From assembly GCA_038212275.1 (NCBI GenBank), contig JBBQUR010000036.1, positions 1 through 14,313 on the forward strand: DNA of 14,313 nt. The letters are read 5' to 3'. The translations under genes and the position numbers were made by a program. This stretch comes from Planctomycetota bacterium. Its GTDB lineage: Bacteria; Planctomycetota; B15-G4. Positions 1 through 14,313 of the stretch are shown one piece after another. Below the pieces are notes generated by a model that worked only from the letters and a program-made list of their open reading frames with translations, was not told the DNA's origin and did no database searches. Each line of letters begins with the position of its first letter. Position 1 is the first letter of the stretch.

Positions 1-529
1 ACTCTCCGGCGTAGGGGGAACGGAATGTTGTCACAGTGCTCAGAGCAACAAGGGAGGTCTCATCCGGTCGCTGGCACCACAGCCAGCGTCAGCTTCGGTA
101 TAAGTTGGCAAAATGAAATCCGAAGCGATGCCGGGTGAGAAATCGGAGGGGGTCGTAGTGCCGTGGATGGCACGTCAAGACAACCGTGCCGGAGGGAAGG
201 GCCCCTGCTTCAACCCTGTCAAGCGAGGAGGTAAGTGACGGTGCATGCCCAATGGGCCAATCACACCCGGTCCGGCTCGGCCGGACCGCAACATCACGAC
301 GACTCCAGCGCGGACTATGCCGCCGGGCCAAGATGGGGAACCGCAATGCTTCCAGCCTGCACTGTGGCGGGCCGCGAACGGAAGCAGTGCGGAGCCCCTC
401 GCACGCCCGCGGCGGACGGTTGTCGGAAAGCCGTATGAAGGAGAACTTCACGTACGGTTTGATGTGGCAGGAGGTGGAGACCAGGCTGCGCGTTGTCGGC
501 GCATCCCAGGCGCCACCTCCTGACCCTGC
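1..529 (+). mobile_element. Group II intron, ORF-less, copy 1 (5' part lies outside the window)
   Basis: Domain V at 428-460 (AAGCCGTATGAAGGAGAACTTCACGTACGGTTT: AGC triad 429-431, CG bulge). Domain VI stem CAGGAGGTGG/CCACCTCCTG with bulged A523. DIII-like GGGGTCGTAGTGCCG...GGGAAGGGCCCC. DIV only ~200 nt, no intact RT ORF. Bases 1-233 match 13943-14174. Confidence 0.93.
245..332 (+). pseudogene. Vestige of the intron-encoded RT/maturase N-terminus
   Basis: GGAGG then ATG at 245 (MPNGPITP). In another frame, 297-332 reads RRLQRGLCRRAK, resembling the IEP RT0 motif (RxLQRxLYxxAK). No YADD or other RT motifs follow before domain V. Confidence 0.6.
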
Positions 530-602
530 CAGCGGGCCGGCTCGGCCGTATGCCGTGCGGAGACTCGGTGGCCGGCCGCTGAGCAGCAGGTCGTCGTCAG
601 GC
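530..602 (+). other. attC site, 3' part (3' exon of intron copy 1)
   Basis: CAGCGGGCCGGC...GCCGGCCGCTG imperfect inverted arms, ending in the core-like GTCAGGC (596-602). Same layout as the intact attC at 12531-12646. Confidence 0.8.
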
Positions 603-618
603 AGGAGCATCGCAAGTC

Positions 619-1023
619 ATGACTGAGCGCGTAGGAACAGGCCGCGTCGATCGCGTGGTGCTCATACTCACCATCCTGGGCCTTTCAGTCTCCCTGTGCT
701 CTCTGATTGTGGACGCCAACTGGCCATCTGAGGAGCCCTTCAGCTTCACCAGTGCGAACCAGACGTTCCCTCGGCTCCTCTTGTACTGGTTCACGGGCAG
801 TGCTTTCGCCATCGCATCTGCCTTCGTTTGGCATCAACGGCTTGTGCTGGCGCGGTCTCTTGCCTATTCGGGCGCCTACTTGATGCTGCTCGGCATCAAC
901 AACGGTGTGTGGGGCACGGCTACCTACATGCCGCATCGTATTGCAGCGCGTGCAGTGAGCCTCACCGTGGCACTTGTCGTCGCAGCTAGGACTCGGAACC
1001 CAAATGTTGTCGCATCCGCCTGA
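619..1023 (+). CDS. Gene-cassette membrane protein, 134 aa, about 4 TM helices, function unknown
   Basis: AGGAG RBS just after core GTCAGGC. Hydrophobic segments. Stop TGA lies inside the inverse core GCCTGAC (1018-1024), the exact complement of the upstream core. Confidence 0.75.
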   Translation: MTERVGTGRVDRVVLILTILGLSVSLCSLIVDANWPSEEPFSFTSANQTFPRLLLYWFTGSAFAIASAFVWHQRLVLARSLAYSGAYLMLLGINNGVWGTATYMPHRIAARAVSLTVALVVAARTRNPNVVASA

Positions 1024-1033
1024 CCCGCCGCTG
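1018..1033 (+). other. attC site, 5' part (R'' plus start of left arm), interrupted by intron stub
   Basis: GCCTGAC-CCGCCGCTG parallels GCCTAAC-TCGCCGCTG (12531) and GGCTAAC-ACGCCGCTG (13649). Confidence 0.78.
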
Positions 1034-1079
1034 GTGTGCCTTCAAAGCTTCTTAGAACTTGCCGGTGGACGTCCGGCCG
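1034..1079 (+). mobile_element. Group II intron 5' stub (copy 2)
   Basis: 40/46 identical to 13665-13710. Starts GTGTG directly after CCGCTG. Similarity ends at about 1079. Confidence 0.85.
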
Positions 1080-1158
1080 ACGTCCGCGACGTCCGCTGCC
1101 TGCGCAACGAGCGCCTCGACCAGTTGCCGACCGAGCACCTGATGGGCGCGTGCGGCTG

Positions 1159-2820
1159 ATGGATCCGGCGGCGCCGGCGCGACGCGGGTGGAGCCGGTGG
1201 CGACGGCGGACAGGTCTCCTCGGCCTCGGGCTGCTGCTGTGCGGCGTGTTGCTGAAAGGCTGCTACGTCCCTCCCGTCGTGCTGGCGGCGGGCGTGCCTG
1301 CACTCGACATCACGGAGTTTCCGCCGGGCGCCGAGCTCGTCGAGGTGCGGGCCGCGCCGGGCATCACGCTGCGGGGCGTGCAGATGGCCCCGCCACCCGG
1401 TGCGCCCGTGGTGCTGCACCTGCTCGAGTCCATGGCATCGATCACGAATGGCTCCCGGCCGTTCGGCACCATCTCGATCGGCGGTGATCCGGAAAGCGAG
1501 GCGGGACAGGTCCGCTCGCTTTCGCAGCTCATGGCCGACGGCTGGCCTGCAGAATCACCGGACGACAAGCTGCGGCTGCAGCACCGCTGGCTCTCTCGCC
1601 TGACGGCGCTGGGACTCGGCGGCCTGGTGCTGGATTACGAAGGCGTGGGCGCGAGCGACGGCGCGCGGAGCCCCGACACGCTGCGCCGCGATGCGCGGGC
1701 CGCCTGGGAGCGAGCCGTCGCGCTCGCGGGCGGCGACGAGCGGCGCGTCATCCTCCGCGGCACGTCGCTGGGCGCGCTGGCGGCGGCCACGCTCCTGCAG
1801 GACGGCGCACGGCCCGGCGCGGTGATCCTGATCGCGCCGGTGCGCGCCGAAACGGTGGCCGTGAACTTCGCGAGCCGCACGTGGAGTCCGGCACTGCTCT
1901 TCGTCGCGCAGTGGTTCGTGCGGGACGCCGTGGACGTGAATCTCGTGGAAGTGCTGGGGCGGCTCGACGTGCCGCTGCTGGTCGTCTCGACGCGAGACGA
2001 TTTCCTGCTGCCGCCCGACGAGGCCGCACTCGTGGCCTCGGCGGTCTCGCGCGCGGGCGGCACGTTCCTTCTGCGGCGCTCGAGCCACGAGGGCCTGTCG
2101 CTCAGCAGCCGCGATGTCCTGGCCGTGGAGCTGGCCTTCTTCGATCGCGTGTTTCCCGCCGTGCGTCCCGGCCGGCTCGACGCGGTGCTCCGCGTCGCGC
2201 AGGATCGGAACATGGATCCGCAGCTGCTTGCGCCAGGAACCCGGGGGCGCGAGCGGCTGGAGGCGCTGCTGGCGCAGACCGCGCTGCCTGCGCCGGAGCT
2301 GACCCTGGCCGCTGTGCTCGCCGGGCTGAGCGACGCGGAACTTGGCAGCGTGTCCGACTGGCTCGCGTGGTTGCCACGGGAACGGATCGGCGCGCTGGCG
2401 CAGCCGGAACTCGATGCGCTGCTGAACCTGCAGGATCCGTCCGGGCGCGTCGACATCGCGTGCCTCGGCGAGACCGCGGCCGCGTGGTCCGCCGTGCCGC
2501 GCGATGCTGCGCAGATTGTCGCGGCTTTCGTGAGCACGGTCCGCTCCGCGAAGCCGGTCTCCGTCGAGTTCGTCATCAGCTTCATCACCGGGAAGGTGGA
2601 GACACCGGATTGCGAAGCGATCGCCCTGAGCGAGTTCCAGAACTCGCGCCGCAAGCTGCTGAAGGACCGCGGCCTGCCGCCCGCCGACGCGGACCGCCTG
2701 ACGCTGCGCGTGATGCTCAAGGCCGCCGGAATTCCGGAGCGCGTCGTGACGGGCGCTGCCGGCGTGTCGTGCGTGCAGGTGTTCGAGGACGGCGTGTGGC
2801 GCGAGTTCGACCTGCCGTGA
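1159..2820 (+). CDS. Alpha/beta hydrolase with N-terminal signal/anchor and C-terminal extension
   Basis: LDYEGVGASDG, nucleophile elbow GTSLG, candidate Asp (RDDFL) and His (SSHEG). Basic plus hydrophobic N-terminus ending LKGC. Start moved to ATG 1159 because the listed start at 1036 lies in the intron stub. Confidence 0.8.
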   Translation: MDPAAPARRGWSRWRRRTGLLGLGLLLCGVLLKGCYVPPVVLAAGVPALDITEFPPGAELVEVRAAPGITLRGVQMAPPPGAPVVLHLLESMASITNGSRPFGTISIGGDPESEAGQVRSLSQLMADGWPAESPDDKLRLQHRWLSRLTALGLGGLVLDYEGVGASDGARSPDTLRRDARAAWERAVALAGGDERRVILRGTSLGALAAATLLQDGARPGAVILIAPVRAETVAVNFASRTWSPALLFVAQWFVRDAVDVNLVEVLGRLDVPLLVVSTRDDFLLPPDEAALVASAVSRAGGTFLLRRSSHEGLSLSSRDVLAVELAFFDRVFPAVRPGRLDAVLRVAQDRNMDPQLLAPGTRGRERLEALLAQTALPAPELTLAAVLAGLSDAELGSVSDWLAWLPRERIGALAQPELDALLNLQDPSGRVDIACLGETAAAWSAVPRDAAQIVAAFVSTVRSAKPVSVEFVISFITGKVETPDCEAIALSEFQNSRRKLLKDRGLPPADADRLTLRVMLKAAGIPERVVTGAAGVSCVQVFEDGVWREFDLP

Positions 2821-2927
2821 GTGCCCCGGTTCGCTCTTTCTCGGCCTCGACGTCGTCACGCAGGGCAAGGGTGACGCACGGGGCTGATCATGTTCGCGGC
2901 GCGCGATCCCCGGGAGGCTTCCGCCTC

Positions 2928-3596
2928 GTGCCTCCGAGATGGCCTCGTCGGCACGGAAGTCGCAGCTTCTTACTCATGGCTGCGTGCCTGTTCAGCCTGA
3001 TCTCGTTGTCCGGCGGCTGCGCAAGCGTGGTGCCGGCGGCGCCCGCGCCGAGGCCGGTGAGTTGGGCCGTGCCGGTGGCCGCCGGTCCGGGCCTGCCTTC
3101 GCTGCATCGCGTCAGCTCGTCGCTCTATCGCTCGGCGCAGCCCACCGAGGAGGGCTTCGAGCGCCTGAGTTCACGAACCAGTCTCCTTCCACCCGATGCC
3201 CCGATCGAGACCGTCCTCTCGCTGCGCGGCTTTCATGTTGACGACGCGCTCGTCACCGGCCCGGGGCTGCGCCTCGAGCAGATCCGCTTTCACACGTGGC
3301 ATGCCGAGGACGAGGACGTGGTCAAGTTCCTGCGCATCGTGACCACGCCCGCGTGCCAGCCGGTGCTGGTGCATTGCCGGCACGGCGCGGACCGCACGGG
3401 AGCGATGGTGGCCATCTACCGCGTCGCGTACGAAGGCTGGACAAAATCACAAGCCCTCGACGAGATGGTCCACGGCGGCTTCGGCTTCCATCCCATGTGG
3501 CAGAACCTGCTGGACTACATCGAGGAACTGGACATCGACGCCATCAAGGCGCAGGTTGCGGAGCAGGGTCGCTGGCCGGTAAGGCCTGCACAGTGA
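2928..3596 (+). CDS. Protein-tyrosine/dual-specificity phosphatase family protein, probable lipoprotein
   Basis: CX5R motif VHCRHGADRTG and LYRSAQP. Signal-like FLLMAACLFSLISLSGGC. Start uncertain: GTG 2928 after GGAGG, or ATG 2976. Confidence 0.85.
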   Translation: MPPRWPRRHGSRSFLLMAACLFSLISLSGGCASVVPAAPAPRPVSWAVPVAAGPGLPSLHRVSSSLYRSAQPTEEGFERLSSRTSLLPPDAPIETVLSLRGFHVDDALVTGPGLRLEQIRFHTWHAEDEDVVKFLRIVTTPACQPVLVHCRHGADRTGAMVAIYRVAYEGWTKSQALDEMVHGGFGFHPMWQNLLDYIEELDIDAIKAQVAEQGRWPVRPAQ

Positions 3597-3608
3597 GACT
3601 CACGGCGC

Positions 3609-6600
3609 TCAGGGCGCGGGCCCCGCGCGCTGCACGATGGACTCGAAGGCCTCGACGCCCTGCAGCGAAGCAAAGTCCGTGTCGCGCAGCCGCGGCCGAT
3701 CCGAGAATCCCTTGGCGACGGCCTCGTCGAGCATCGCGAGGCACAACTCTTCCGAGCGCAGGGCGATCTCGGCGTCGGCCGACGCGGCATGCGCTGCCTC
3801 CGCGGCCTCCGCTGCCACGGGTCCGCCCTCACCGGCGCTTCCGCGCGCAGCGGCGGCGAGTCGCCCGGTGATCTGCGCGCCCTGAAACAGGATGTCCGGC
3901 CGACGCCCGCCCAATTCGAAGGCCTCCTCGCACACGGCCAGCGCCTCGTCGAAGTCGCCCGTGGCGCGGTGCACGTCGGCGAGCTGGAACAAGGCGCTGG
4001 CGAGCTGGCTGCCCACGTCATTGCTGTCCGGCGCGGCCGCGCGCATCTGCCGCACGTTGGCCACGCCGTCCTGCGCTTCGCCCAGCGCGCGCTCCGGATC
4101 GCCGAGATTCAGATGCATGCCCGACGCCACGGCCAGCGCCGCGCCGAGGAAGTAGCTGTACTGCAGATTGTCGGGAAACTCCGTGACGAGACGCTCGAGC
4201 GTCGCGCACGACTCCTCGATGAGCGTCGCGGCCTCGGCGAAGCGCTTCTGGTTGCCCAACTCCGCACTGAGATTGATGCCGATGACCGCGGCGCTCTGGC
4301 CATACGACGGCTCACGCGGAAACTCCTGCGCGAGGCTGCGGCCGGCCTCGAGTCCCGCACCGAGCACCTCCACCGCCTCCGTGCGGTCCGCGCGCGACAT
4401 GAGCAGCAGCCCGAAGTTGTTCGCGGCTTCGACGATGTCGTGGCGCAGCAGGCGGTCACGCGGGTGGTCGCGCCGCAGGCGGATGAGCGCCTCGAAGGCC
4501 GTGCGGAACATCGCCTCGGACTCCTTTCCGTGACCGAGCGCGATGCCCGCCGTGGCGGCGCCATTGAGCGCGGCGGCGTACTGGATCGCGTAGTCCACGG
4601 ACTCGGGGTGGTCGCGGTGAAGCCGCTCCGCCGTCCCGGCCGCGAGCAGGTAGAGCTGGCGCCCCTCTTCGTCATCGCCGAAGTCGTTCGCAAGGCGCGC
4701 GAGGTTCGACAGCACGATCACCTGGTCGCGCAGCCACGAAGGTGCCGGATCGGGCCGCCCGGTCAGGCCTTCGAGCAACTCGAGCGCCTCGCCGTACGTC
4801 GCGCGCGCCTCGTCGAGCCGGCCGGCATCCTGCTCCAGCGTGCCCACCTGCGAGAGGCAGCCCGCGAGCATGTGAATCAGCTCGCCGTCCTCCGGCGCCT
4901 CCGCCACCAGGCCGCGCAGCGTGGCGATGATCTCGTCGAAGGTCGCGAGCGCTTCGTCGCGGCGCCCGAGTTCCAGCAGGATGTCGCCGATGGAACGCAG
5001 CGTGCGCGCGTGCTCGGCGCGCGGCACGACGTCGCCGGGCTGCTCGGTGCTCAGCTCGCGGTAGAAGACGAGCGCGCGTTCGAGCAGCGCGATGCGCGTG
5101 TCCTCCATGCCGGGCAGGTTCTCCAGGTCGTTGGAGCCGACCTCCCAGAGCATCTGGTCCACGGCCTGCAGCGTGCGCTGGTAGCCGCGCTCGCTGGCCT
5201 GGCGTTGCAGCGTTTCCGCAGCCAGCGAGCGCTGCAGGGCCTGCCGGCCCGCGCTCAGCTCGTCGTTGAGGCGGCGCTGCTCGTCCGCGGCGCGCGACTG
5301 CAGCATGCCGTAGCCCACGGGCCCGCCGACGAGCAGCACCGCGCCGAGCACGGAGGCCAGCGCGCGCGCCGGGTTGCGCTGCGCCCAGCGCCGCAGTCGC
5401 AGCGTCGGTCCCGGACGGCGCGCGGACACCGGGCGCAGCTCCAGCGCGTTCTGCAGATCCTCGGCGAAGGCCGCCGCGTCGACGTAGCGGCGTTCGCGCT
5501 CGAGAGACATCGCGCGCTGGCAGACGGTCTCGGCGTCGCGCGGCACGGCCGCATTGAGGTCGCGCAGCGGGATGAGGCGGCCGTCGAGGATGCGCTGGCG
5601 CGTGGCCTCGATGTCGCCGCCGGTGAAGGGCGAGCGCAGCGTGAGCATCTCGTAGAGCGTGGCGCCAAGCGAGTAGACGTCGGTGCGCGCGTCAAGATCG
5701 CCGTGCTCGCCGCGCACCTGCTCCGGCGACATCCACGCCAGCGAGCCGAGCTGCGCGCCGCTGCCCGTGATGCGTTCGCTGCCCGCGGCCGCCGCGAGGC
5801 CGAAGTCGATCAGCAGCACGCGGCCCTCCGGCGTCAGCATGATGTTGCTGGGCTTGATGTCGCGATGCAGGACGCCCTGCTCGTGGGCGTGCTGCAGCGC
5901 GTCCGCGACGAGGCGCACGATGCGCAGGCAGGTCGCGGCCCACGTGCCGGCGAACAACTCCCCGGCCGTCGCACTCGAGCCCGTGCCGCGGCTTGCGCTG
6001 GCCGCTGCGCCGCCCGTGCCGCGGCTTGCGCTGGCCGCCGCGCCGCCCGTGCCGCGGCTTGCGCTGGCTGCCGCGCCGCCCGTGCCGCCCGTGCCGCTCG
6101 TGCCGACGGAGCTGCCGCCACTCGCCTCGCGCCGGGCCGTCAGCACCTCGACCGCGCGGCGCAGGTGCGCGCCGGTGAGCCGCGACGGGTCGCGTCCGGC
6201 AAGCGCCGTGAGCAGCTCTTCCAGCGAGGCGCCGCGCACGCGCTCCATTGCGTAGTACGGGATGCCCTTGTCCTCGCCCGCGGCGTACACCGGGATGATG
6301 CCCGGATGCGCGAGCCGCGCGACGGCCTCGACCTCGCGCCGGAAGCGGTCGCGCGCGCCGGGAAAGTAGAGCAGGTCCGGGCGCACGAGCTTGAGCGCGA
6401 CGCGGCGCTGCAGGCCGTCCTGCTCCGCGACGAAGACGACTCCCATGCCGCCGCCGCCGAGCCGGCCGAGGATGCGGAACTCGCCGATGCGCTCGGGCAG
6501 CGGCGCGTCCTTCGGCGGCGCGCCGATGAAGCCGATGGCGCGGAGCTGTTCGACGCGCGCCCGCAGCGCGCTGGCCTGGCCCGGGTGCGCGACGCACAGC

Positions 6601-6719
6601 GCCTCGAGCGCCGGCGGTCCTTCGCGCTCGATTCTCTCGAGCGCCTGCGCGACGAGGTCCGAGAGCGACGCCGGCTGCGCATCGTCGCGTGGAGGGTTTG
6701 AGGGGGCGCGCGAACGCAT
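3609..6719 (-). CDS. Hanks-type Ser/Thr protein kinase with TM helix and C-terminal TPR-like repeats
   Basis: GGGGMGVV, VALK, HRDIKPSN, DFG, WMSPEQ, DVYSLG motifs. Hydrophobic ALASVLGAVLLVGGPVGYGML. Helical repeats afterwards. Confidence 0.95.
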   Translation of the reverse strand: MRSRAPSNPPRDDAQPASLSDLVAQALERIEREGPPALEALCVAHPGQASALRARVEQLRAIGFIGAPPKDAPLPERIGEFRILGRLGGGGMGVVFVAEQDGLQRRVALKLVRPDLLYFPGARDRFRREVEAVARLAHPGIIPVYAAGEDKGIPYYAMERVRGASLEELLTALAGRDPSRLTGAHLRRAVEVLTARREASGGSSVGTSGTGGTGGAAASASRGTGGAAASASRGTGGAAASASRGTGSSATAGELFAGTWAATCLRIVRLVADALQHAHEQGVLHRDIKPSNIMLTPEGRVLLIDFGLAAAAGSERITGSGAQLGSLAWMSPEQVRGEHGDLDARTDVYSLGATLYEMLTLRSPFTGGDIEATRQRILDGRLIPLRDLNAAVPRDAETVCQRAMSLERERRYVDAAAFAEDLQNALELRPVSARRPGPTLRLRRWAQRNPARALASVLGAVLLVGGPVGYGMLQSRAADEQRRLNDELSAGRQALQRSLAAETLQRQASERGYQRTLQAVDQMLWEVGSNDLENLPGMEDTRIALLERALVFYRELSTEQPGDVVPRAEHARTLRSIGDILLELGRRDEALATFDEIIATLRGLVAEAPEDGELIHMLAGCLSQVGTLEQDAGRLDEARATYGEALELLEGLTGRPDPAPSWLRDQVIVLSNLARLANDFGDDEEGRQLYLLAAGTAERLHRDHPESVDYAIQYAAALNGAATAGIALGHGKESEAMFRTAFEALIRLRRDHPRDRLLRHDIVEAANNFGLLLMSRADRTEAVEVLGAGLEAGRSLAQEFPREPSYGQSAAVIGINLSAELGNQKRFAEAATLIEESCATLERLVTEFPDNLQYSYFLGAALAVASGMHLNLGDPERALGEAQDGVANVRQMRAAAPDSNDVGSQLASALFQLADVHRATGDFDEALAVCEEAFELGGRRPDILFQGAQITGRLAAAARGSAGEGGPVAAEAAEAAHAASADAEIALRSEELCLAMLDEAVAKGFSDRPRLRDTDFASLQGVEAFESIVQRAGPAP
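5980..6096. repeat. 33-bp in-frame tandem repeat (3 copies plus partials) inside the kinase domain
   Basis: Unit CCCGTGCCGCGGCTTGCGCTGGCCGCTGCGCCG with minor variants; encodes (GTGGAAASASR)x3 on the minus strand. Confidence 0.92.
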
Positions 6720-6741
6720 GGGGGCGCAGTCTATCCGCGGC

Positions 6742-6954
6742 TCACGCGGAGTCTGACGGCGACGTGCTCTCCGGCAGCAGCCCCAGGTCGCCGAGGATGA
6801 TGAGCCGGGCGAGCAGGCGCTGCGCCTCCTCGGGGTGGGCAGCCAGCATCGCCGCCACGCCCGGCATGCCCGCCACCTCGAGGATCTCCAGGCATCTGAC
6901 CGTGAGGTCGAGCAGGTCCTGCGGGACAGGCGGCGGTGGTGGGGCGGGTGACAT
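6742..6954 (-). CDS. 70-aa protein homologous to the N-terminal pre-kinase domain of the downstream kinase
   Basis: ATG at 6954 with GAGGT RBS just upstream. 18/47 ungapped identities to the kinase N-terminus. Stops 22 bp before the kinase start. Confidence 0.75.
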   Translation of the reverse strand: MSPAPPPPPVPQDLLDLTVRCLEILEVAGMPGVAAMLAAHPEEAQRLLARLIILGDLGLLPESTSPSDSA

Positions 6955-7123
6955 CGGAGACCTCACTCCCTGAATCCGGATTCCGGCGCAAACGTCACAG
7001 GAAGAACCGCGCCCGGAGCCGGCGCCGCGCCCCGGCCGGGCACTGCGGAGATGCAGCGGATACGATGCCTCCGCCCGCGACGCGGCCGTCAGCCGTCCGG
7101 TCCTCACTCGAGCGCCCCACCAC

Positions 7124-7735
7124 ATGGACCAGGAAAGCCAGTTGCTCGTGCAGCGCGCCACGCAGGGCGACGCTCGTGCCGTCGAGGCGCTGCTCGCGCA
7201 GAACCTGCCGGCCCTGCGCGCGTGGGTGCGGCTGCGCTGCGGCCCGGTGCTGCGCTCGCGCGAGTCGGCCAGCGACATCGTGCAGTCCGCCTGCCGCGAG
7301 GTGCTGCAGCACATCGACCGCTTCCGCTGGAACGGCGAGGCCGGCTTCCGCGCGTGGCTCTACGCGACGACCGCGCGCAAGATCGCGGACCGCGCCGACC
7401 ACTGGCAGGCGCAGCGCCGCGACGCCGCCCGCGAGGTGCCGATGCACGCGCCGGGCCCCGACGGCGACACGCAGGTGCTGGACGTCTACCGCTCCTTCTG
7501 CTCGCCCAGCGCCATGGCGACAGGCCGCGAGACAATGGATCGCATCGAGCGCGCCTTCGAGAAGCTGGCCGACGACGAGCGCGAGATCATCGTGATGTCG
7601 CGCATCGCCGGCCTCACCGGCGCGGAGATCGCGGAGAAGCTCAACTGCAGCGAAGCCGCCGCACGCCAGCGCCTCTTCCGCGCGCTGGCCAATCTCTCCG
7701 AAGCGCTCGAGGGCGAGGGCGGCGCGGCCGGGTGA
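7124..7735 (+). CDS. ECF sigma-70 factor, planctomycete kinase-associated type
   Basis: QGDARAVEALL, SASDIVQ (sigma 2.2), FRAWL, and region 4 EREIIVMSRIAGLTGAEIAEKLNCSEAAARQRLFRAL. Confidence 0.93.
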   Translation: MDQESQLLVQRATQGDARAVEALLAQNLPALRAWVRLRCGPVLRSRESASDIVQSACREVLQHIDRFRWNGEAGFRAWLYATTARKIADRADHWQAQRRDAAREVPMHAPGPDGDTQVLDVYRSFCSPSAMATGRETMDRIERAFEKLADDEREIIVMSRIAGLTGAEIAEKLNCSEAAARQRLFRALANLSEALEGEGGAAG

Positions 7736-7803
7736 CGGACGGCGGCCGCAGCGCTGCGCTGCAAGCCTCACGGGAACGAGACGTGAAGGACTCCGGCAGG
7801 AGC

Positions 7804-7848
7804 CGCGCCGCGCGCCGCACCGGGGGAGGAGTTGCGGCGCGGCGCGCG
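7804..7848. terminator. Imperfect GC-rich hairpin between convergent genes, possible terminator
   Basis: CGCGCCGCGCGCCGCA ... TGCGGCGCGGCGCG inverted arms; no U-tract. Confidence 0.35.
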
Positions 7849-7868
7849 GGCCGCAGTGGCGGGTCAGG

Positions 7869-8795
7869 TCACGGCGTCGTGGCGCGCAGGCCGTTCGTCG
7901 CGGTGAGTCCCGCGGGACCCGTCGCGTCCACGATCCACTCCTGGAAGTAGAGCGAGAAACCTGACGGCAAGCCTGCGGGCCACACGGCGGGAAGTATCAG
8001 CGTGCCGGCGGGGCCGGTGGGCAGGCCGGTGATGATGATGGTCGGTGTGGGGACGAGCGTGCCGCCCTTGAAGGGCACGTTGGCCGCGCCGGCGCCGACG
8101 AACAGCGCGGCGCTGGAGTTGGCCTTGGCGCCGGTGAGGTCCAGCGAGATCGGGTCGCCGGCGAACAGCGTGCCCGAGCCGGTGAGGACAGGTGCGGGGT
8201 TCGCGCCGGCCAGGCCGAGGCCGAGGTCGGTCCACGTGCCGACGCGCGTGAGCTCCACGCGGTAGTCGGCGTCCGGGTCGGAGTTGTCGGCGTAGTAGTG
8301 GTCGTAGGCGCAGAGGAAGAGGTGCGTCGCGCCGGCCGGCACGAGCACCGTGACGACGGGCGACGTGGGCGTGCCGAGGAAGAAGTCTTCGGCGATGTCC
8401 GTGGCCTGGTTGCCCTGGAAGGTCGTGATGGTGAAGAAGTCCTCGCCGGCATCGATCGCGTCGGGCACGCGGTGGAGCAGCGCCGCGCCGAGCAGCGTGG
8501 CGCTCGAGCTGAACACGCCGAGCGTGTCCGTGACCACGTCGCCGCCGGGGCCCTGGTCGAAGTCGCCGAGAACGCGCAGCCGCACCGACGTGCCGGGCAG
8601 CAGGCCCAGCGGCGCGAGCGCGACGGGCACCGCGTTCACCACCGAGTCCGAGTTGACGTGCAGGAAGCTCCCCTTGGCGGTCAGCGGCACGACGGTCTGT
8701 GCGGCGAGCGGCGTCAGCGCACTGCCGGCGACGAGGGCAAGCGCCACCGCCGCGAACGAGGCGAGCGGCATGCGAGACAGCAGGTCGGTGGACAT
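7869..8795 (-). CDS. Secreted hypothetical protein, paralogue A (308 aa)
   Basis: Signal peptide ending LAA-Q. Collinear with 8877-9782 (FLHVNSD, GPGGD, DAG, DNSDP, near-identical C-terminus). Confidence 0.85.
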   Translation of the reverse strand: MSTDLLSRMPLASFAAVALALVAGSALTPLAAQTVVPLTAKGSFLHVNSDSVVNAVPVALAPLGLLPGTSVRLRVLGDFDQGPGGDVVTDTLGVFSSSATLLGAALLHRVPDAIDAGEDFFTITTFQGNQATDIAEDFFLGTPTSPVVTVLVPAGATHLFLCAYDHYYADNSDPDADYRVELTRVGTWTDLGLGLAGANPAPVLTGSGTLFAGDPISLDLTGAKANSSAALFVGAGAANVPFKGGTLVPTPTIIITGLPTGPAGTLILPAVWPAGLPSGFSLYFQEWIVDATGPAGLTATNGLRATTP

Positions 8796-8876
8796 GGGAA
8801 AACTCCGAAAAGTGTGGTGGTGAGCCGTGGTACGCGGTGATGCGTGGTGCGCGGTGCGGCGAGGCTGCGGATCAGG

Positions 8877-9782
8877 TCACGGTGTCGTGGCTTGCAGGCC
8901 GTTCGTCGCGGCGAATCCGGCGGGGCCGGAGGCGTCTGCGATCCACTCCTGGAAGTAGAGCGAGAAGCCGGACGGCAGGCCGGCGGGCCACGCGGCGGGA
9001 AGTGACAGCGCGCCGGCCGGGCCGGTGGGGAGGCCCGTGATGATGAGGTCGGGCGTCGGCACGAGCGTGCCGCCCTTGAGCGGCGCGTTGGCCACGCCGA
9101 AACCGACGATGAGCGCGGCGCTGGAGTTGGCCTTCGCGCCGGTGAGGTCCAGCGTGATCGGCTCGCCGCCGATCAGCGTGCCGGTGCCGGTGAGCAACGG
9201 CGTGCCGCCCGCGCCGGCCAGGCCGTGTCCCAGGTTGGTCCAGCAGCCGACGACCGTGACCTGCAGCGCGTAGTTGCCGTTCGGGTCGGAGTTGTCCTGG
9301 AAGAGCTGGTCGGACGGGCACACGAACAGGAAAGCCGCGCCGGCCGGCACCTTGATGACGATGTCATCGACGCCGGTGGTCGAGATGCTGAAGTCCTCGT
9401 CGATGTCCGTGACCTGGTTGCCGAAGTAGGTGTTCGAGGTCAGCACGTCGATGCCGGCGTCGATCGCGCCCGGCACGCGGTGCAGGTTCGAGCCGGCGAG
9501 CAGCACGCTGCTCGAGCTGAACACGCCGATCATCGACGTGAAGGTGTCGCCGCCCGGGCCGTTGTCGAAATTGCCGAGGCGCGACAGACGCAGGCACTTG
9601 CCGGGCGCGGCACCCAGCGACGCGAGCGAGATGGCCGGCGCGTTGAGCGCGTTGTCCGAGTTGACGTGCAGGAAAGCGACCCTGGGGTCGATCGGCACAG
9701 TCGTGGTCTGCGCGGACAGCGGCGCGGCGAATGAGGTCAGAGCAAGCGCGGCAGCCGCGAGCGGAGCGAGGCGGAGGGACAT
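8877..9782 (-). CDS. Secreted hypothetical protein, paralogue B (301 aa)
   Basis: AAGGAG RBS, signal peptide ending LSA-Q, tandem paralogue of 7869-8795. The ATG itself reads at 9780-9782. Confidence 0.85.
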   Translation of the reverse strand: MSLRLAPLAAAALALTSFAAPLSAQTTTVPIDPRVAFLHVNSDNALNAPAISLASLGAAPGKCLRLSRLGNFDNGPGGDTFTSMIGVFSSSSVLLAGSNLHRVPGAIDAGIDVLTSNTYFGNQVTDIDEDFSISTTGVDDIVIKVPAGAAFLFVCPSDQLFQDNSDPNGNYALQVTVVGCWTNLGHGLAGAGGTPLLTGTGTLIGGEPITLDLTGAKANSSAALIVGFGVANAPLKGGTLVPTPDLIITGLPTGPAGALSLPAAWPAGLPSGFSLYFQEWIADASGPAGFAATNGLQATTP

Positions 9783-9974
9783 GGGGAGACTCCTTGGGGT
9801 GATCGTCGTGGCAGGGCATCGTGCACCCGCTTCGAGCTGCCGTGCAAACCGAAGCTGCCGCTGCCGGCATGACGGAATCGGTGGCGGCGCGCGCGTGTGA
9901 CAGCTGAATTCAGCACGGCCCGGATGTGGGCCGGCCCGACGGCAGCGCGGCCTGTTGCGGCGCGGCCGCCAGGC

Positions 9975-10169
9975 GCGGCGGACCGGGGCAGCAGACCGGC
10001 GCAGCGGACCGGCGCAGCGGGCCGGCGCAGCGGACCGGCGCAGCGGACCGGCGCAGCGGGCCGGCGCAGCGGACCGGCGCAGCGGACCGGCGCAGCGGAC
10101 CGGCGCAGCAGACCGGCGCGGCAGACCGGCGCAGCGGACCGGGGCAGCGGACCGGCGCGGCGGCTCGGC
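9975..10169. repeat. 13-bp tandem repeat, about 15 copies, consensus GCAGCGGACCGGC
   Basis: Contiguous units without spacers, in the divergent intergenic region. Variants GCAGCAGACCGGC and GCAGCGGGCCGGC recur. Confidence 0.95.
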
Positions 10170-10290
10170 AACCGCTGCGCCGCATCCTGACCGTCGTGGC
10201 CTTCGAGCGGCCGGGCGTGCGACAGCACATCGGGCGCATGGCCAGGTCCGTCGCTACGATGTGAGCCCACATCCGACGGGAGAACGGACG

Positions 10291-10716
10291 ATGACGATGC
10301 AGCTCAACCGATTGACCCCCCTGGCCTACTTCCTGCTGCGCGTCGTGGCGGGGCTCATGTTCTTCCAGGTCGGCTCGATGGTCATGCTCGGCTGGTTCGG
10401 CGGCATGCCGGGCGGCGCGGCCTCGCCACCGGAAATCTTCTCGCAGACATGGTTCGGCGGGCTGCTCGAGCTGGTCGGCGGCGCGCTTGTCATGGTGGGG
10501 CTGTTCACGCGGCCGGCCGCCTTCCTCGTGTCGGGGGAGATGGCCGTCGCGTACTTCCAGTTCCACTACATGACGCGCGGTGGTTGGCCGGTGCAGAACG
10601 ACGGCCAGCCCGCCGTGCTCTACTGCTTCGTCTTCCTGCTCATCGCCGCGCAGGGCGCCGGCATCTGGAGCGTGGACGCGATGCTGCAAAAGCGCGAGGC
10701 CGCCGCGCACCGCTGA
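10291..10716 (+). CDS. DoxX family membrane protein
   Basis: LLRVVAGLMFF, GLLELVGGALVMVGLFTRPAAFLVSGEMAVAYF, GAGIWSVD. GGAGA RBS before ATG 10291. Confidence 0.9.
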   Translation: MTMQLNRLTPLAYFLLRVVAGLMFFQVGSMVMLGWFGGMPGGAASPPEIFSQTWFGGLLELVGGALVMVGLFTRPAAFLVSGEMAVAYFQFHYMTRGGWPVQNDGQPAVLYCFVFLLIAAQGAGIWSVDAMLQKREAAAHR

Positions 10717-12530: not shown

Positions 12531-12646
12531 GCCTAACTCGCCGCTGCAGCAGACCGGCCGCAGCAGCAGACCGGCCGCAGGTGACGCGAGTGGCTTCGCG
12601 ACACAGCCATGCGCGGCCGGACTGCTGAGCGGCCGAGTCGTTAGCC
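12531..12646 (+). other. Intact attC site (116 bp), no intron
   Basis: R'' GCCTAAC 12531-12537 and R' GTTAGCC 12640-12646. Arms TCGCCGCTGCAGCAGACCGGCCG / CGGCCGGACTGCTGAGCGGCCGA. Internal 17-bp tandem duplication at 12547-12580. Confidence 0.9.
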
Positions 12647-12671: not shown

Positions 12672-13640
12672 ATGCCGCCCAACGGAGACCTTCCAAGCAA
12701 CTGCTTCATCTGCCGAAGTGCGGTATCCATTGCCTCAAGAAGTGGAATTCGCGATGCCGTCGATATCGCCTGTCCGCGCTGCGGTGAGTACGGCCTCAGT
12801 GGCTCCCTTGCAGTAGAGCTTGGCCATTCGGGCCCGCTCAACAAGAAGACGGGCGCTGCGATCAGCTTCTCGGTCCGGCATATGTCGCGCCAGATGCGTA
12901 ACCCGCTCATCACGCACGAGCTTCTTAGCTCGCTGATCACTGATGCCGTATTGCCGAGCCCCGCAGAGCAGGCAGATCGGATGGTGCTGTGGTTAGGTGA
13001 CAACCTTGAGGGGCCTGGAACAACCGTCGCGATCGAGGTCGTGTCGTATTCCTCGATCATCGGCGCACTTGATGCGGCAGGCGTTCATTTCATCCTGAAG
13101 GCACTACTGGACCGTAAGCTTATTATTGGGGCTAACCAGGTTGGCCCAGTTCAGCAGCTCTCACTGTCGTTCACTGGATGGCAAGAGTATGCCGCACTCA
13201 AGAAAGGCTCCGTGGTGAGCCGGCGGGCATTCATGGCCATGGCGTACAGCAACCTTGCACTTACCAACATTTATCGGGAGCAGTTACGGCCGGCCACGAA
13301 ACAAGCTGGCTTTGACCTTCGTCGTCTGGATGAAGAGCCGCCTGCGGGTTTGCTTGATGCCCGCTTGCGCGTGGAAATCCAGCTTGCTCGGTTTGTCGTC
13401 GCTGATCTCACCGATGCTAACGCAGGAGCGTATTGGGAAGCTGGTTATGCCGAGGGGCTGGGCAAGCCTGTCATCTATACTTGTCGCCACGACGTGTTCA
13501 CCACCAGAGGAACACACTTTGATACGAGTCACCACCATACCATCAAGTGGGATCCTGATAACCCGGCAGATGCCGCGCAGGCACTCAAAGCAACAATCCG
13601 CGCAACGCTTCCCGCTGAAGCCAGAATGCAAGATGAGTAG
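12672..13640 (+). CDS. Cassette protein: Cys-pair (Zn-ribbon-like) N-terminus plus nucleoside 2-deoxyribosyltransferase/TIR-like C-terminal domain
   Basis: CFIC and CPRCG. AFMAMAYS ... ARFVVADLTDANAGAYWEAGYAEGLGKPVIYTC ... HFD. Visibly more AT-rich than the central block. Bounded by GTTAGCC and GGCTAAC. Confidence 0.8.
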   Translation: MPPNGDLPSNCFICRSAVSIASRSGIRDAVDIACPRCGEYGLSGSLAVELGHSGPLNKKTGAAISFSVRHMSRQMRNPLITHELLSSLITDAVLPSPAEQADRMVLWLGDNLEGPGTTVAIEVVSYSSIIGALDAAGVHFILKALLDRKLIIGANQVGPVQQLSLSFTGWQEYAALKKGSVVSRRAFMAMAYSNLALTNIYREQLRPATKQAGFDLRRLDEEPPAGLLDARLRVEIQLARFVVADLTDANAGAYWEAGYAEGLGKPVIYTCRHDVFTTRGTHFDTSHHHTIKWDPDNPADAAQALKATIRATLPAEARMQDE

Positions 13641-13648
13641 CACCCGTT

Positions 13649-13664
13649 GGCTAACACGCCGCTG
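13649..13664 (+). other. attC site, 5' part, interrupted by intron copy 3
   Basis: GGCTAAC is the exact complement of GTTAGCC (12640). It is followed by ACGCCGCTG and then the intron GTGTG. Confidence 0.85.
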
Positions 13665-14174
13665 GTGTGCCTTGAAAGGTTCTGAGGACTTGCCGGTGGA
13701 AGTCCGGTCGTGGTAACCGCCAGAGGGCCACGTAGCAGACTCCCGCTGCTTTTGGGCGACCCGGGGTGGCGAACCGGAGTGTCCCCTCGTGAAGAGGGCG
13801 CAAGGCAGCAGTCCGTACCATGAAGGAAATCCTGCAGCGTCGAAGAGTTAACCCCGCAAGGGGAGCAAGAGAGTGCCGAGCGTCTCAGCGAATCGCGAAG
13901 GCCATGGAGGGGGTGAAGGCTCTTGAAGCGCAGCCCCGAAGAACTCTCCGGCGTAGGGGGAACGGAATGTTGTCACAGTGCTCAGAGCAACAAGGGAGGT
14001 CTCATCCGGTCGCTGGCACCACAGCCAGCGTCAGCTTCGGTATAAGTTGGCAAATGAAATCTGAAGCGATGCCGGGTGAGAAGTTGGAGGGGGTCGTAGT
14101 ACCGTGGATGGCACGTCAAGACAACCGTACCGGAGGGAAGGGCCCCTGCTTCAACCCTGTCAAGCGAGGATGTA
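13665..14174 (+). mobile_element. Group II intron copy 3, domains I-III, interrupted at the start of DIV
   Basis: 5' GTGTG (GUGYG). GCCGAG...GCGAAGGC element enclosing putative EBS1 CAGCG (13886-13890). 13943-14174 differs from 1-233 by 6 substitutions and 1 indel. Confidence 0.92.
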
Positions 14175-14313
14175 CTGAGTCTTGCATTGGATAGGGAGTG
14201 AACGTGTCACCATCCGAGTGCCTCGCGGATGTAGCTCACTTCGGGGTGGCCGAAGAAAGCGCGCACACGTTCGCGGTCACTCTTGACGTTGGCAAGCTCG
14301 TCCTCGACCGCCT
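14175..14313 (-). mobile_element. IS630-family-like insertion sequence, right end (partial)
   Basis: Intron similarity stops right after a TA (14173-14174), the IS630 target. A minus-strand ORF tail ends 32 bp from the junction. Confidence 0.7.
14207..14313 (-). CDS. C-terminus of a probable IS630-family transposase (partial)
   Basis: Manual translation AVEDELANVKSDRERVRAFFGHPEVSYIREALGW*, resembling the 'xRxFFxHPxVxYI' tail of IS630 transposases. Not in the ORF track. Confidence 0.62.
   Translation of the reverse strand, partial: AVEDELANVKSDRERVRAFFGHPEVSYIREALGW

Follow-up and report, generated by a model that had tools for sequence, protein, structure and literature searches.

The closest described counterparts of the intron considered here are the group IIC-attC introns (the S.ma.I2 lineage; PMC3001079, PMC4424553), which, like the family of the intron in the present stretch of DNA, are attC-specific group II introns with proteins that have no endonuclease domain. 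In the passages of these sources drawn upon here, IIC-attC introns are stated to integrate into the bottom strand, in antisense relative to the cassette genes (PMC3001079), and the targeting of terminators and attC sites is stated, in a review, to be limited to class C and to proceed via a DNA stem-loop in the bottom strand (PMC4424553). The present intron differs from this description: whereas the IIC-attC introns belong to class C, have no EBS2 and lie in the bottom strand in antisense, the intron described below is, by its RNA features, IIB-like, with an EBS2 stretch that covaries with the exons of relatives, and is located in the top strand, in sense, inside the 5' arm of attC after the L'' box.

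In its RNA features, the intron is more akin to the classes IIE and IIF. According to the relevant part of Nagy et al. 2013 (PMC3753933), a 5-nt loop of domain V is an idiosyncrasy of IIE/IIF introns, which are small, and long structured domain VI stems tend to occur in IIF; furthermore, the EBS2-IBS2 pairing is dispensable for self-splicing in vitro and was suggested to serve homing. With these introns, the present one shares a small IIB-like ribozyme, the 5-nt loop of domain V, and EBS1 and EBS2 stretches in domain Id that covary with the exons, and its long domain VI is as described for IIF; the likeness is one of RNA features, and attC targeting is not mentioned in that part of the paper. 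Non-IIC introns are also on record from cassette arrays, namely UHB.I2 (IIB1, CL1) and the class E fragments H.ha.F1/F2, which were found beside attC sites by Sonbol and Siam 2021 (PMC7923331). As presented in the cited part of that study, UHB.I2 has the orientation of the cassettes, like the intron described here, but it is situated just after an attC, with poorly conserved flanking exons, and no pairing of EBS2 with the inverse core is described for it, whereas the H.ha copies are without their 5' parts. In our search of the literature, we found no description of an EBS2 that pairs with the attC inverse core, nor of a non-IIC (IIE/IIF-like) intron lineage specialised on attC.

The window, that is, the whole stretch of DNA that was analysed, is the entire contig C36 (14,313 nt) of a genome that comprises 40 contigs and is 91% complete. 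When this genome was searched with the 5' part of the intron, three places were found, all of them on C36, namely the query itself, positions 1-233, which are 97% identical to it across 233 nt, and a 5' stump at 1034-1079. The respective features of the window are as follows:

13665..14174, forward strand: the 5' 510 nt of intron copy 3 (domains I-III), which match RF02003, align with copy 1 and with the metagenome contig L148, and end at the TA at 14173-14174.
1..529, forward strand: the 3' part of intron copy 1, which likewise aligns with L148, with domain V at 428-461, the bulged branch A at 523 and the last base at 529.
530..602, forward strand: the 3' exon of copy 1, which is the 3' half of an attC and closes with the R'-like GTCAGGC (596-602).
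1018..1079, forward strand: the 5' arm of an attC with a 46-nt 5' fragment of intron copy 2, comprising GCCTGAC, IBS2 TGACCC (1021-1026), IBS1 (1029-1033) and the intron (1034-1079).
14175..14313, reverse strand: the terminal part of an insertion sequence that carries a DDE_3 transposase; contigs C27 and C7 have it at their ends as well.

The first bases of the intron, GUGUG at 13665, conform to the GUGYG start of group II introns; in copy 1, domain V shows the AGC triad and the two-base bulge, and domain VI a bulged A. The sole Rfam family that reaches its gathering score in the window is RF02003 (13690-13823, 76.7 bits vs a gathering score of 49). The domain V family RF00029 is below its gathering score in copy 1 and attains 41.4 bits vs 40 in a full-length twin on L148, which is uninterrupted, about 806 nt long, about 95% identical to the window's intron and protein-less. 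Both copy 1 and L148 have a domain V loop of 5 nt (GAAG-GAGAA-CUUC) and a long domain VI, and the total of about 806 nt includes a domain IV remnant of about 190 nt, which places the ribozyme within the 450-700 nt of IIE/IIF introns; in domain IV of copy 1, no reading frame is present. Inspection by eye revealed no convincing alpha partner in the window's intron, and the place of the Id3 alpha-prime is taken by a covarying hairpin (helix 10). Thus, as assigned from its RNA features, the intron is ORF-less, IIB-like and of the small IIE/IIF type.

The intron copies in the window are probably relics, given that a cognate protein is absent, an insertion sequence interrupts one of them, another is reduced to a stump, the third closes with GC, and the best target is empty. 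Specifically, the last two bases of copy 1 (528-529) are GC, which may be a splicing defect, whereas the twin on L148 has AC, the canonical end. Copy 3 is cut at the TA at 14173-14174, because the end of the contig is shared with the DDE_3 element of C27 and C7, the last 133 nt of C36 being identical to the ends of these contigs. This insertion sequence, with its TA target, is found in at least three places in the genome, and the assembly is broken at each of them. The copy 2 stump is joined to about 9.6 kb of DNA with 70-77% GC (1080-10700), located between two cassette stretches of lower GC content; the genes in it include a hydrolase, a kinase-like gene, a sigma factor and paired secreted proteins. 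A 14-nt unit (GGACCGGCGCAGCG-like) is repeated in tandem about 13 times at 9960-10160, upstream of a gene for a small membrane protein.

Two further features show what kind of site the intron occupies:

12531..12646, forward strand: an empty attC with R'' GCCTAAC, IBS2 TAACTC (12534-12539), IBS1 CGCTG (12542-12546) and R' GTTAGCC (12640-12646).
13649..13664, forward strand: the 5' exon of copy 3, with R'' GGCTAAC, IBS2 TAACAC (13652-13657) and IBS1 CGCTG (13660-13664), a layout shared by the clade of the intron.

The empty site, which is downstream of a DUF805 gene, folds as DNA with -41.0 kcal/mol, and its outer boxes conform to the R'' (RYYYAAC) and R' (GTTRRRY) patterns of attC. An integron integrase is encoded on another contig of the same genome (C30:36727-37668; TIGR02249, 431.3 bits vs a cut-off of 265), and an attC of the same family (AGCTAAC-CC-GCCACTG/CAGC) is located about 500 nt downstream of it. 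This attC is the first one downstream of the integrase gene and has the same direction (C30:36727-38256, locus L159), an arrangement that is presumably that of the inverted-integrase group of integrons. In the window, the intron resides in the top strand of attC and in sense, sharing the direction of the cassette genes and of the reading frames upstream; the insertion point directly follows the L'' box and is 9 nt beyond the AAC of the R'' inverse core. The cassette gene at 12672-13640 (322 aa) has a weak C-terminal match to nucleoside 2-deoxyribosyltransferases (20.6 bits, below the cut-off). Counts of the target pattern in the genome showed no enrichment over a reversed-pattern control, and exact matches to the empty site are found only at C30:38176 and C36:12533. 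A simple attC finder was too permissive in high-GC DNA and missed the known empty site; only its hit on the contig of a protein-coding relative, L147, was used, after confirmation by folding. This hit, at 680 nt upstream of the L147 intron, is an empty attC that folds perfectly and has the same target. In the other protein-coding relatives the site is seen as its 5' half only, and the 3' exons of protein-coding members lie outside the flanking 1500 nt.

An earlier note on this DNA had proposed that two stretches of the intron, CAGCG and GAGTTA, are EBS1 and EBS2, through which the intron would recognise the TAAC motif of attC by sequence, and the letters and coordinates given there proved correct. 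CAGCG (13886-13890) lies inside the 11-nt loop UCUCAGCGAAU closed by the hairpin strands GCCGAGCG/CGCGAAGGC (13875-13902), and is complementary to CGCTG, which ends both visible 5' junctions (13660-13664 before GTGTG at 13665, and 1029-1033 before GTGTG at 1034) and is also found in the empty attC at 12542-12546. GAGTTA (13845-13850) is complementary to TAACTC of the empty attC (12534-12539) in 6/6 positions, so that the best target, the 12531 site, is empty, and the two occupied sites pair less completely, with 5/6 for TAACAC at copy 3 (13652-13657) and four Watson-Crick pairs plus one G-U for TGACCC at copy 2 (1021-1026). Within the window alone, this complementarity is not above chance: in a comparison of the 510-nt intron part with 20 exon bases of the empty site, with shuffles as control, there were 12 perfect complementary 5-mers vs 14.2 in shuffles and one 6-mer vs 3.5, and CAGCG is present three times in the intron part (at 13835, 13886 and 14026). 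The significance of the complementarity hence derives from its place in the structure and from the relatives, not from the letters of the window.

The relatives came from two sources. Of 401 genomes of the phylum searched at the DNA level, 13 had matches, including the window's own; in addition, a search for an 18-nt core pattern in one genome per species yielded at least 120 loci. Among the core matches listed, 55 of 131 had the hairpin GCCGAGC-loop-CGAAGGC, of which three were dropped for short flanks; 25 introns that resemble the window 3' of the hairpin were aligned (alignment A1), and the other 27 were left unaligned. For the 25 relatives, RNAalifold gives a structure of 41 pairs, 25 of them with changes on both sides; 96.3% of the cells are paired vs 37-43% with slid partners, and the covariation score is 0.45 vs at most 0.078 in the controls. 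Projected onto the window, the elements that matter here are the following:

13837..13842, forward strand: stem strand GCGUCG, which closes the segment before EBS2 and pairs with CGGCG-U at 13949-13954 (helices 4 and 5).
13845..13850, forward strand: EBS2 GAGUUA with the conserved core GUUA (13847-13850), for which the comparative structure has no pairing partner; its offset from the GCGUCG stem is 2-7.
13852..13863, forward strand: a small hairpin, CCCC-GCAA-GGGG, just 3' of EBS2 and followed by a linker; it is present in most relatives of the alignment, with varying sequence.
13869..13873, forward strand: stem strand GAGAG, which pairs with CUCUC at 13944-13948 (helix 7), with both-side changes in 4/5 pairs.
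13875..13902, forward strand: the EBS1 hairpin GCCGAGCG-loop-CGCGAAGGC, inside the GAGAG stem (helices 8 and 9, 97-100% paired in the 25 sequences).
13886..13890, forward strand: EBS1 CAGCG in the terminal loop of the conserved hairpin (alignment columns 144-153), covarying with the last exon bases in relatives.

Both stretches, therefore, are unpaired, rather than held in stems, in a covariation-supported model from 25 relatives, and in this model the order of stems, EBS2 stretch and EBS1 hairpin is that of a IIB-type layout. Three candidates were rejected. The CAGCG at 13835-13839 was ruled out as EBS1, since part of it falls within the conserved GCGUCG strand of the stem (13837-13842); CGGCGT at 13949, complementary to the copy 3 exon at -9..-4, was ruled out as an exon-binding site, since it belongs to the same conserved stem (helices 4 and 5); and a CAUG/CAUGG stem around the whole arm, seen by eye, is not kept in the relatives.

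The 5' splice sites of the relatives were placed by a simple score for the GUGYG end; sites were mis-called in L017, L020, L043, L072 and L105, none of which is in the aligned set, and L094 is a non-homologue. When the covariation check that the earlier note had suggested is carried out across these homologues, both stretches are found to covary with their own exons. For EBS1, with the helix required to end at exon -1 or -2, the 32 distinct loops have a mean helix of 4.38 with their own exon vs 2.54 with other exons (0/20000 permutations; because the sequences are related, this and the following permutation counts overstate independence), and the helix is at least 4 in 23/32 loops, with such loop/exon combinations as CACAAAU/ATTTGTG (L021), CACGCG/CGCGTG (L149), CATGC/GCATG (L152) and CAACGC/GCGTTG (L143). 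For EBS2, the 10 nt after the stem were considered in the 24/25 introns with enough exon (L130 was dropped), leaving n=21 after removal of repeated EBS2 stretches; here the best helix at the own exon -16..-6 has a mean of 4.71 vs 3.35 (0/20000), and the control region -40..-25 gives 3.93 vs 3.52 (640/20000), which points to a small composition effect. The fixed-register map shows a single diagonal ridge, with offset 2 vs exon -13..-8 being 64% paired in 36 intron-site pairs, compared with 36.7% for permuted exons (0/5000), and the register of this ridge is exactly that of GAGUUA with TAACTC. The signal persists with the window and its clade left out, with 66.7% paired in 20 introns vs 38.5% for permuted exons (0/5000), and in L123 the EBS2 place is occupied by AGGCUA, which matches TAGCCT in 6/6 positions. 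Since this stretch varies freely and covaries with the exons in 20 sister introns, it is a working EBS2 in the intron family.

To gather the intron's own clade, a metagenome collection was scanned for a 29-nt pattern taken from domain I, in its 3' part, and thus outside the exons and EBS sites. Of the 15 loci obtained, L144 belongs to another lineage and L156 and L157 are without the 5' part, which leaves 12 with a 5' junction, in which the introns start GUGUGCCUUG. In 9/12 junctions, AAC is located 8-10 nt before the splice site, mostly in a heptamer like GCCTAAC, with TAAC in six; thus, the clade sites are attC-like, and GUUA of the intron faces (Y)TAAC in them. The clade retains this EBS2 core, which, together with its flanks, would form 4-7 bp with (C)UAAC(A), whereas EBS1 varies among the clade introns, with site matches such as CAACGC/GCGTTG, CACGCG/CGCGTG, CATGC/GCATG and CGACAG/CTGTCG. 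The fit is uneven: the EBS2 helix is at most 4 bp in 6/12 clade junctions, including the near-twin L148 (AAGUUA, 4 bp), the contiguous EBS1 pairing is at most 3 bp in 5/12 (L145, L146, L147, L151 and L154), and in L154 EBS2 and target do not fit. Judging by these junctions, only the 4-nt core GUUA/UAAC is general.

Among the 10 frames scanned, RVT_1 is above the Pfam cut-off in L145, L146, L147, L150 and L151, as well as in L144, and the maturase domain GIIM is present in L145, L147 and L151, and also in L144; L143 and L154 have weak, cut-off domain hits, and L149 and L156 none. The proteins of L145 and L147 are 65% identical. The reverse transcriptase domains in L145, L146, L147, L150 and L151 indicate that some members of the clade code for a protein, unlike the protein-less introns of the window and of L148. 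A cognate intron protein is absent from the 91%-complete genome of the window, in which the sole intron protein found is 32-35% identical to those of the clade; it is encoded by a second, unrelated group II intron at the start of a contig (C12:1-900, L008), with a domain V of 58 bits. In most clade loci, same-strand reading frames end 10-52 nt before the junction, an observation that carries little weight because long opposite-strand frames also occur in GC-rich DNA.

Taken together, the covariation in relatives, the sites of the clade and the comparative structure support the recognition of the TAAC motif of attC by sequence that the earlier note had put forward. With a probability of roughly 0.7, the two stretches are EBS1 and EBS2 of a IIB-like, top-strand attC intron, the clade relatives of which retrohome by these pairings. 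On the comparison of sequences, the EBS assignments are right and the attC reading is well supported, and from them we infer attC homing by EBS pairing. In such a mechanism, EBS1 CAGCG would pair with the last five exon bases, CGCUG, and EBS2 GAGUUA with the UAAC(UC) of R'' at exon -13..-8, with two unpaired bases separating the two target stretches. Protein-coding relatives of the clade would reverse-splice into attC DNA, that is, retrohome, through these pairings, whereby EBS2 would be a constant reading of the conserved inverse core and EBS1 would adapt to whichever L'' box the local array carries; the window copies can be envisaged as protein-less descendants that are now probably immobile. 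Should this be the case, a different class of introns would exploit the other strand of attC, via base pairing with a motif common to all attC sites, and the pairing of EBS2 with the inverse core would be a simple rule for attC homing, representing a natural RNA guide for integron sites that possibly could be re-targeted.

The alternative that fares best, although we consider it unlikely, is that attC is reached by EBS1 together with some other cue, either the protein or folded DNA, so that GUUA would be kept by descent and UAAC would stand opposite to it because every attC has it there. Indeed, most of the EBS2 match within the clade is conservation rather than covariation, since GUUA and UAAC are both nearly constant and the members are related. 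Furthermore, the EBS2-IBS2 pairing is not needed for the splicing of IIE/IIF introns in vitro (as stated in the part of PMC3753933 cited above), and the insertion point is just after the bulged G in 2/2 well-folded empty sites (12531-12646 and the one of L147), which gives room for a structural cue. However, the homologous stretch covaries with the exons in the 20 sister introns, and even within the clade both partners have changed together in two sub-lineages, in L150 to GUUUA with TAAAC, and in L153 and L155 to UCUAG with CTAGG and UCUA with TAGG, respectively. Both observations favour a true pairing of EBS2 with its target.

Still less probable, in our view, is that the three copies on the contig come from duplication or recombination of cassette-plus-intron units instead of repeated homing. 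The contig ends in intron copies, the junction of 1034-1079 with 1080-10700, where the 46-nt stump abuts unrelated high-GC DNA, looks like a rearrangement at an intron copy, and the genome yielded no cognate protein, all of which would fit this possibility. On the other hand, the R'' letters, the spacers and the neighbouring cassettes differ at the three junctions, and the near-twin L148 is in yet another attC, from another sample.

It is very improbable that the hexamer forms an internal helix with 13943-13948 rather than serving as an exon-binding site, so that its match to TAAC would be coincidental. This possibility derives from the folding of the window sequence on its own: both the minimum-energy fold, in which AGAGUU (13844-13849) is paired with AACUCU (13943-13948), and the ensemble engage the hexamer, with an unpaired probability of at most 0.13 for 5/6 EBS2 bases; this fold is 5.2 kcal/mol more stable than the one with both sites forced open, and the statistics of the window alone are, as noted, at the level of chance. 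In the 25 relatives, however, the AGAGUU/AACUCU helix is only 27% paired, no better than the slid controls, and its 3' strand pairs instead with GAGAG (13869-13873), where 4/5 pairs covary. We therefore take the EBS2-capturing fold as a peculiarity of the window sequence, which, as far as the folding model goes, might mask EBS2 in the free RNA. As a side observation, AACUCU belongs to the 3' strand of a conserved stem and resembles the IBS2 target.

Finally, it is hardly credible that we deal with an IIC-attC-type intron that recognises the stem-loop of attC like S.ma.I2, because, even though the intron is located in attC sites and its family provides here no evidence of endonuclease-type homing, it resides in the top strand, in sense and within the 5' arm instead of after the stem-loop, and has a covarying EBS2, which, in the cited parts of the respective papers, is absent from IIC introns (PMC3753933), while IIC-attC introns are on the bottom strand and run against the cassette genes (PMC3001079).

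Beyond the pairing itself, the odds seem slightly better than even that these introns represent a widespread non-IIC (IIE/IIF-like) lineage that is specialised on attC purely by RNA-DNA pairing, freezes cassettes by splitting attC, and has protein-less derivatives that spread in trans. Because of the sense orientation, the intron would be removable from cassette transcripts while splitting the attC DNA; the split attC would freeze the neighbouring cassettes together, and protein-less derivatives, such as the window's intron, would spread with help in trans. This suggests that introns may lock cassettes, such that the recombination site is split and expression continues.

Other members of the family are found at other kinds of site. 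In a sister group with EBS1 CAUG (L009, L030, L038, L047, L084, L088, L102, L106 and L122), the 5' exon has the form TAnAAT-N7-9-CATG, which, by its sequence, resembles the -10 box of a promoter with a start codon behind it, and a 5-bp match between the EBS2 stretch and the region of the box is seen in L009, L010 and L088. In Paenibacillus and Cohnella, non-IIC members of the family (L048, L049, L083, L142 and neighbours) are found after terminator-like hairpins, and their A-rich EBS2 stretches (CAAAAAA, AAAAAG) are complementary to the T-run. Such an EBS2 would read terminators by base pairing, a kind of targeting ascribed to class C alone.
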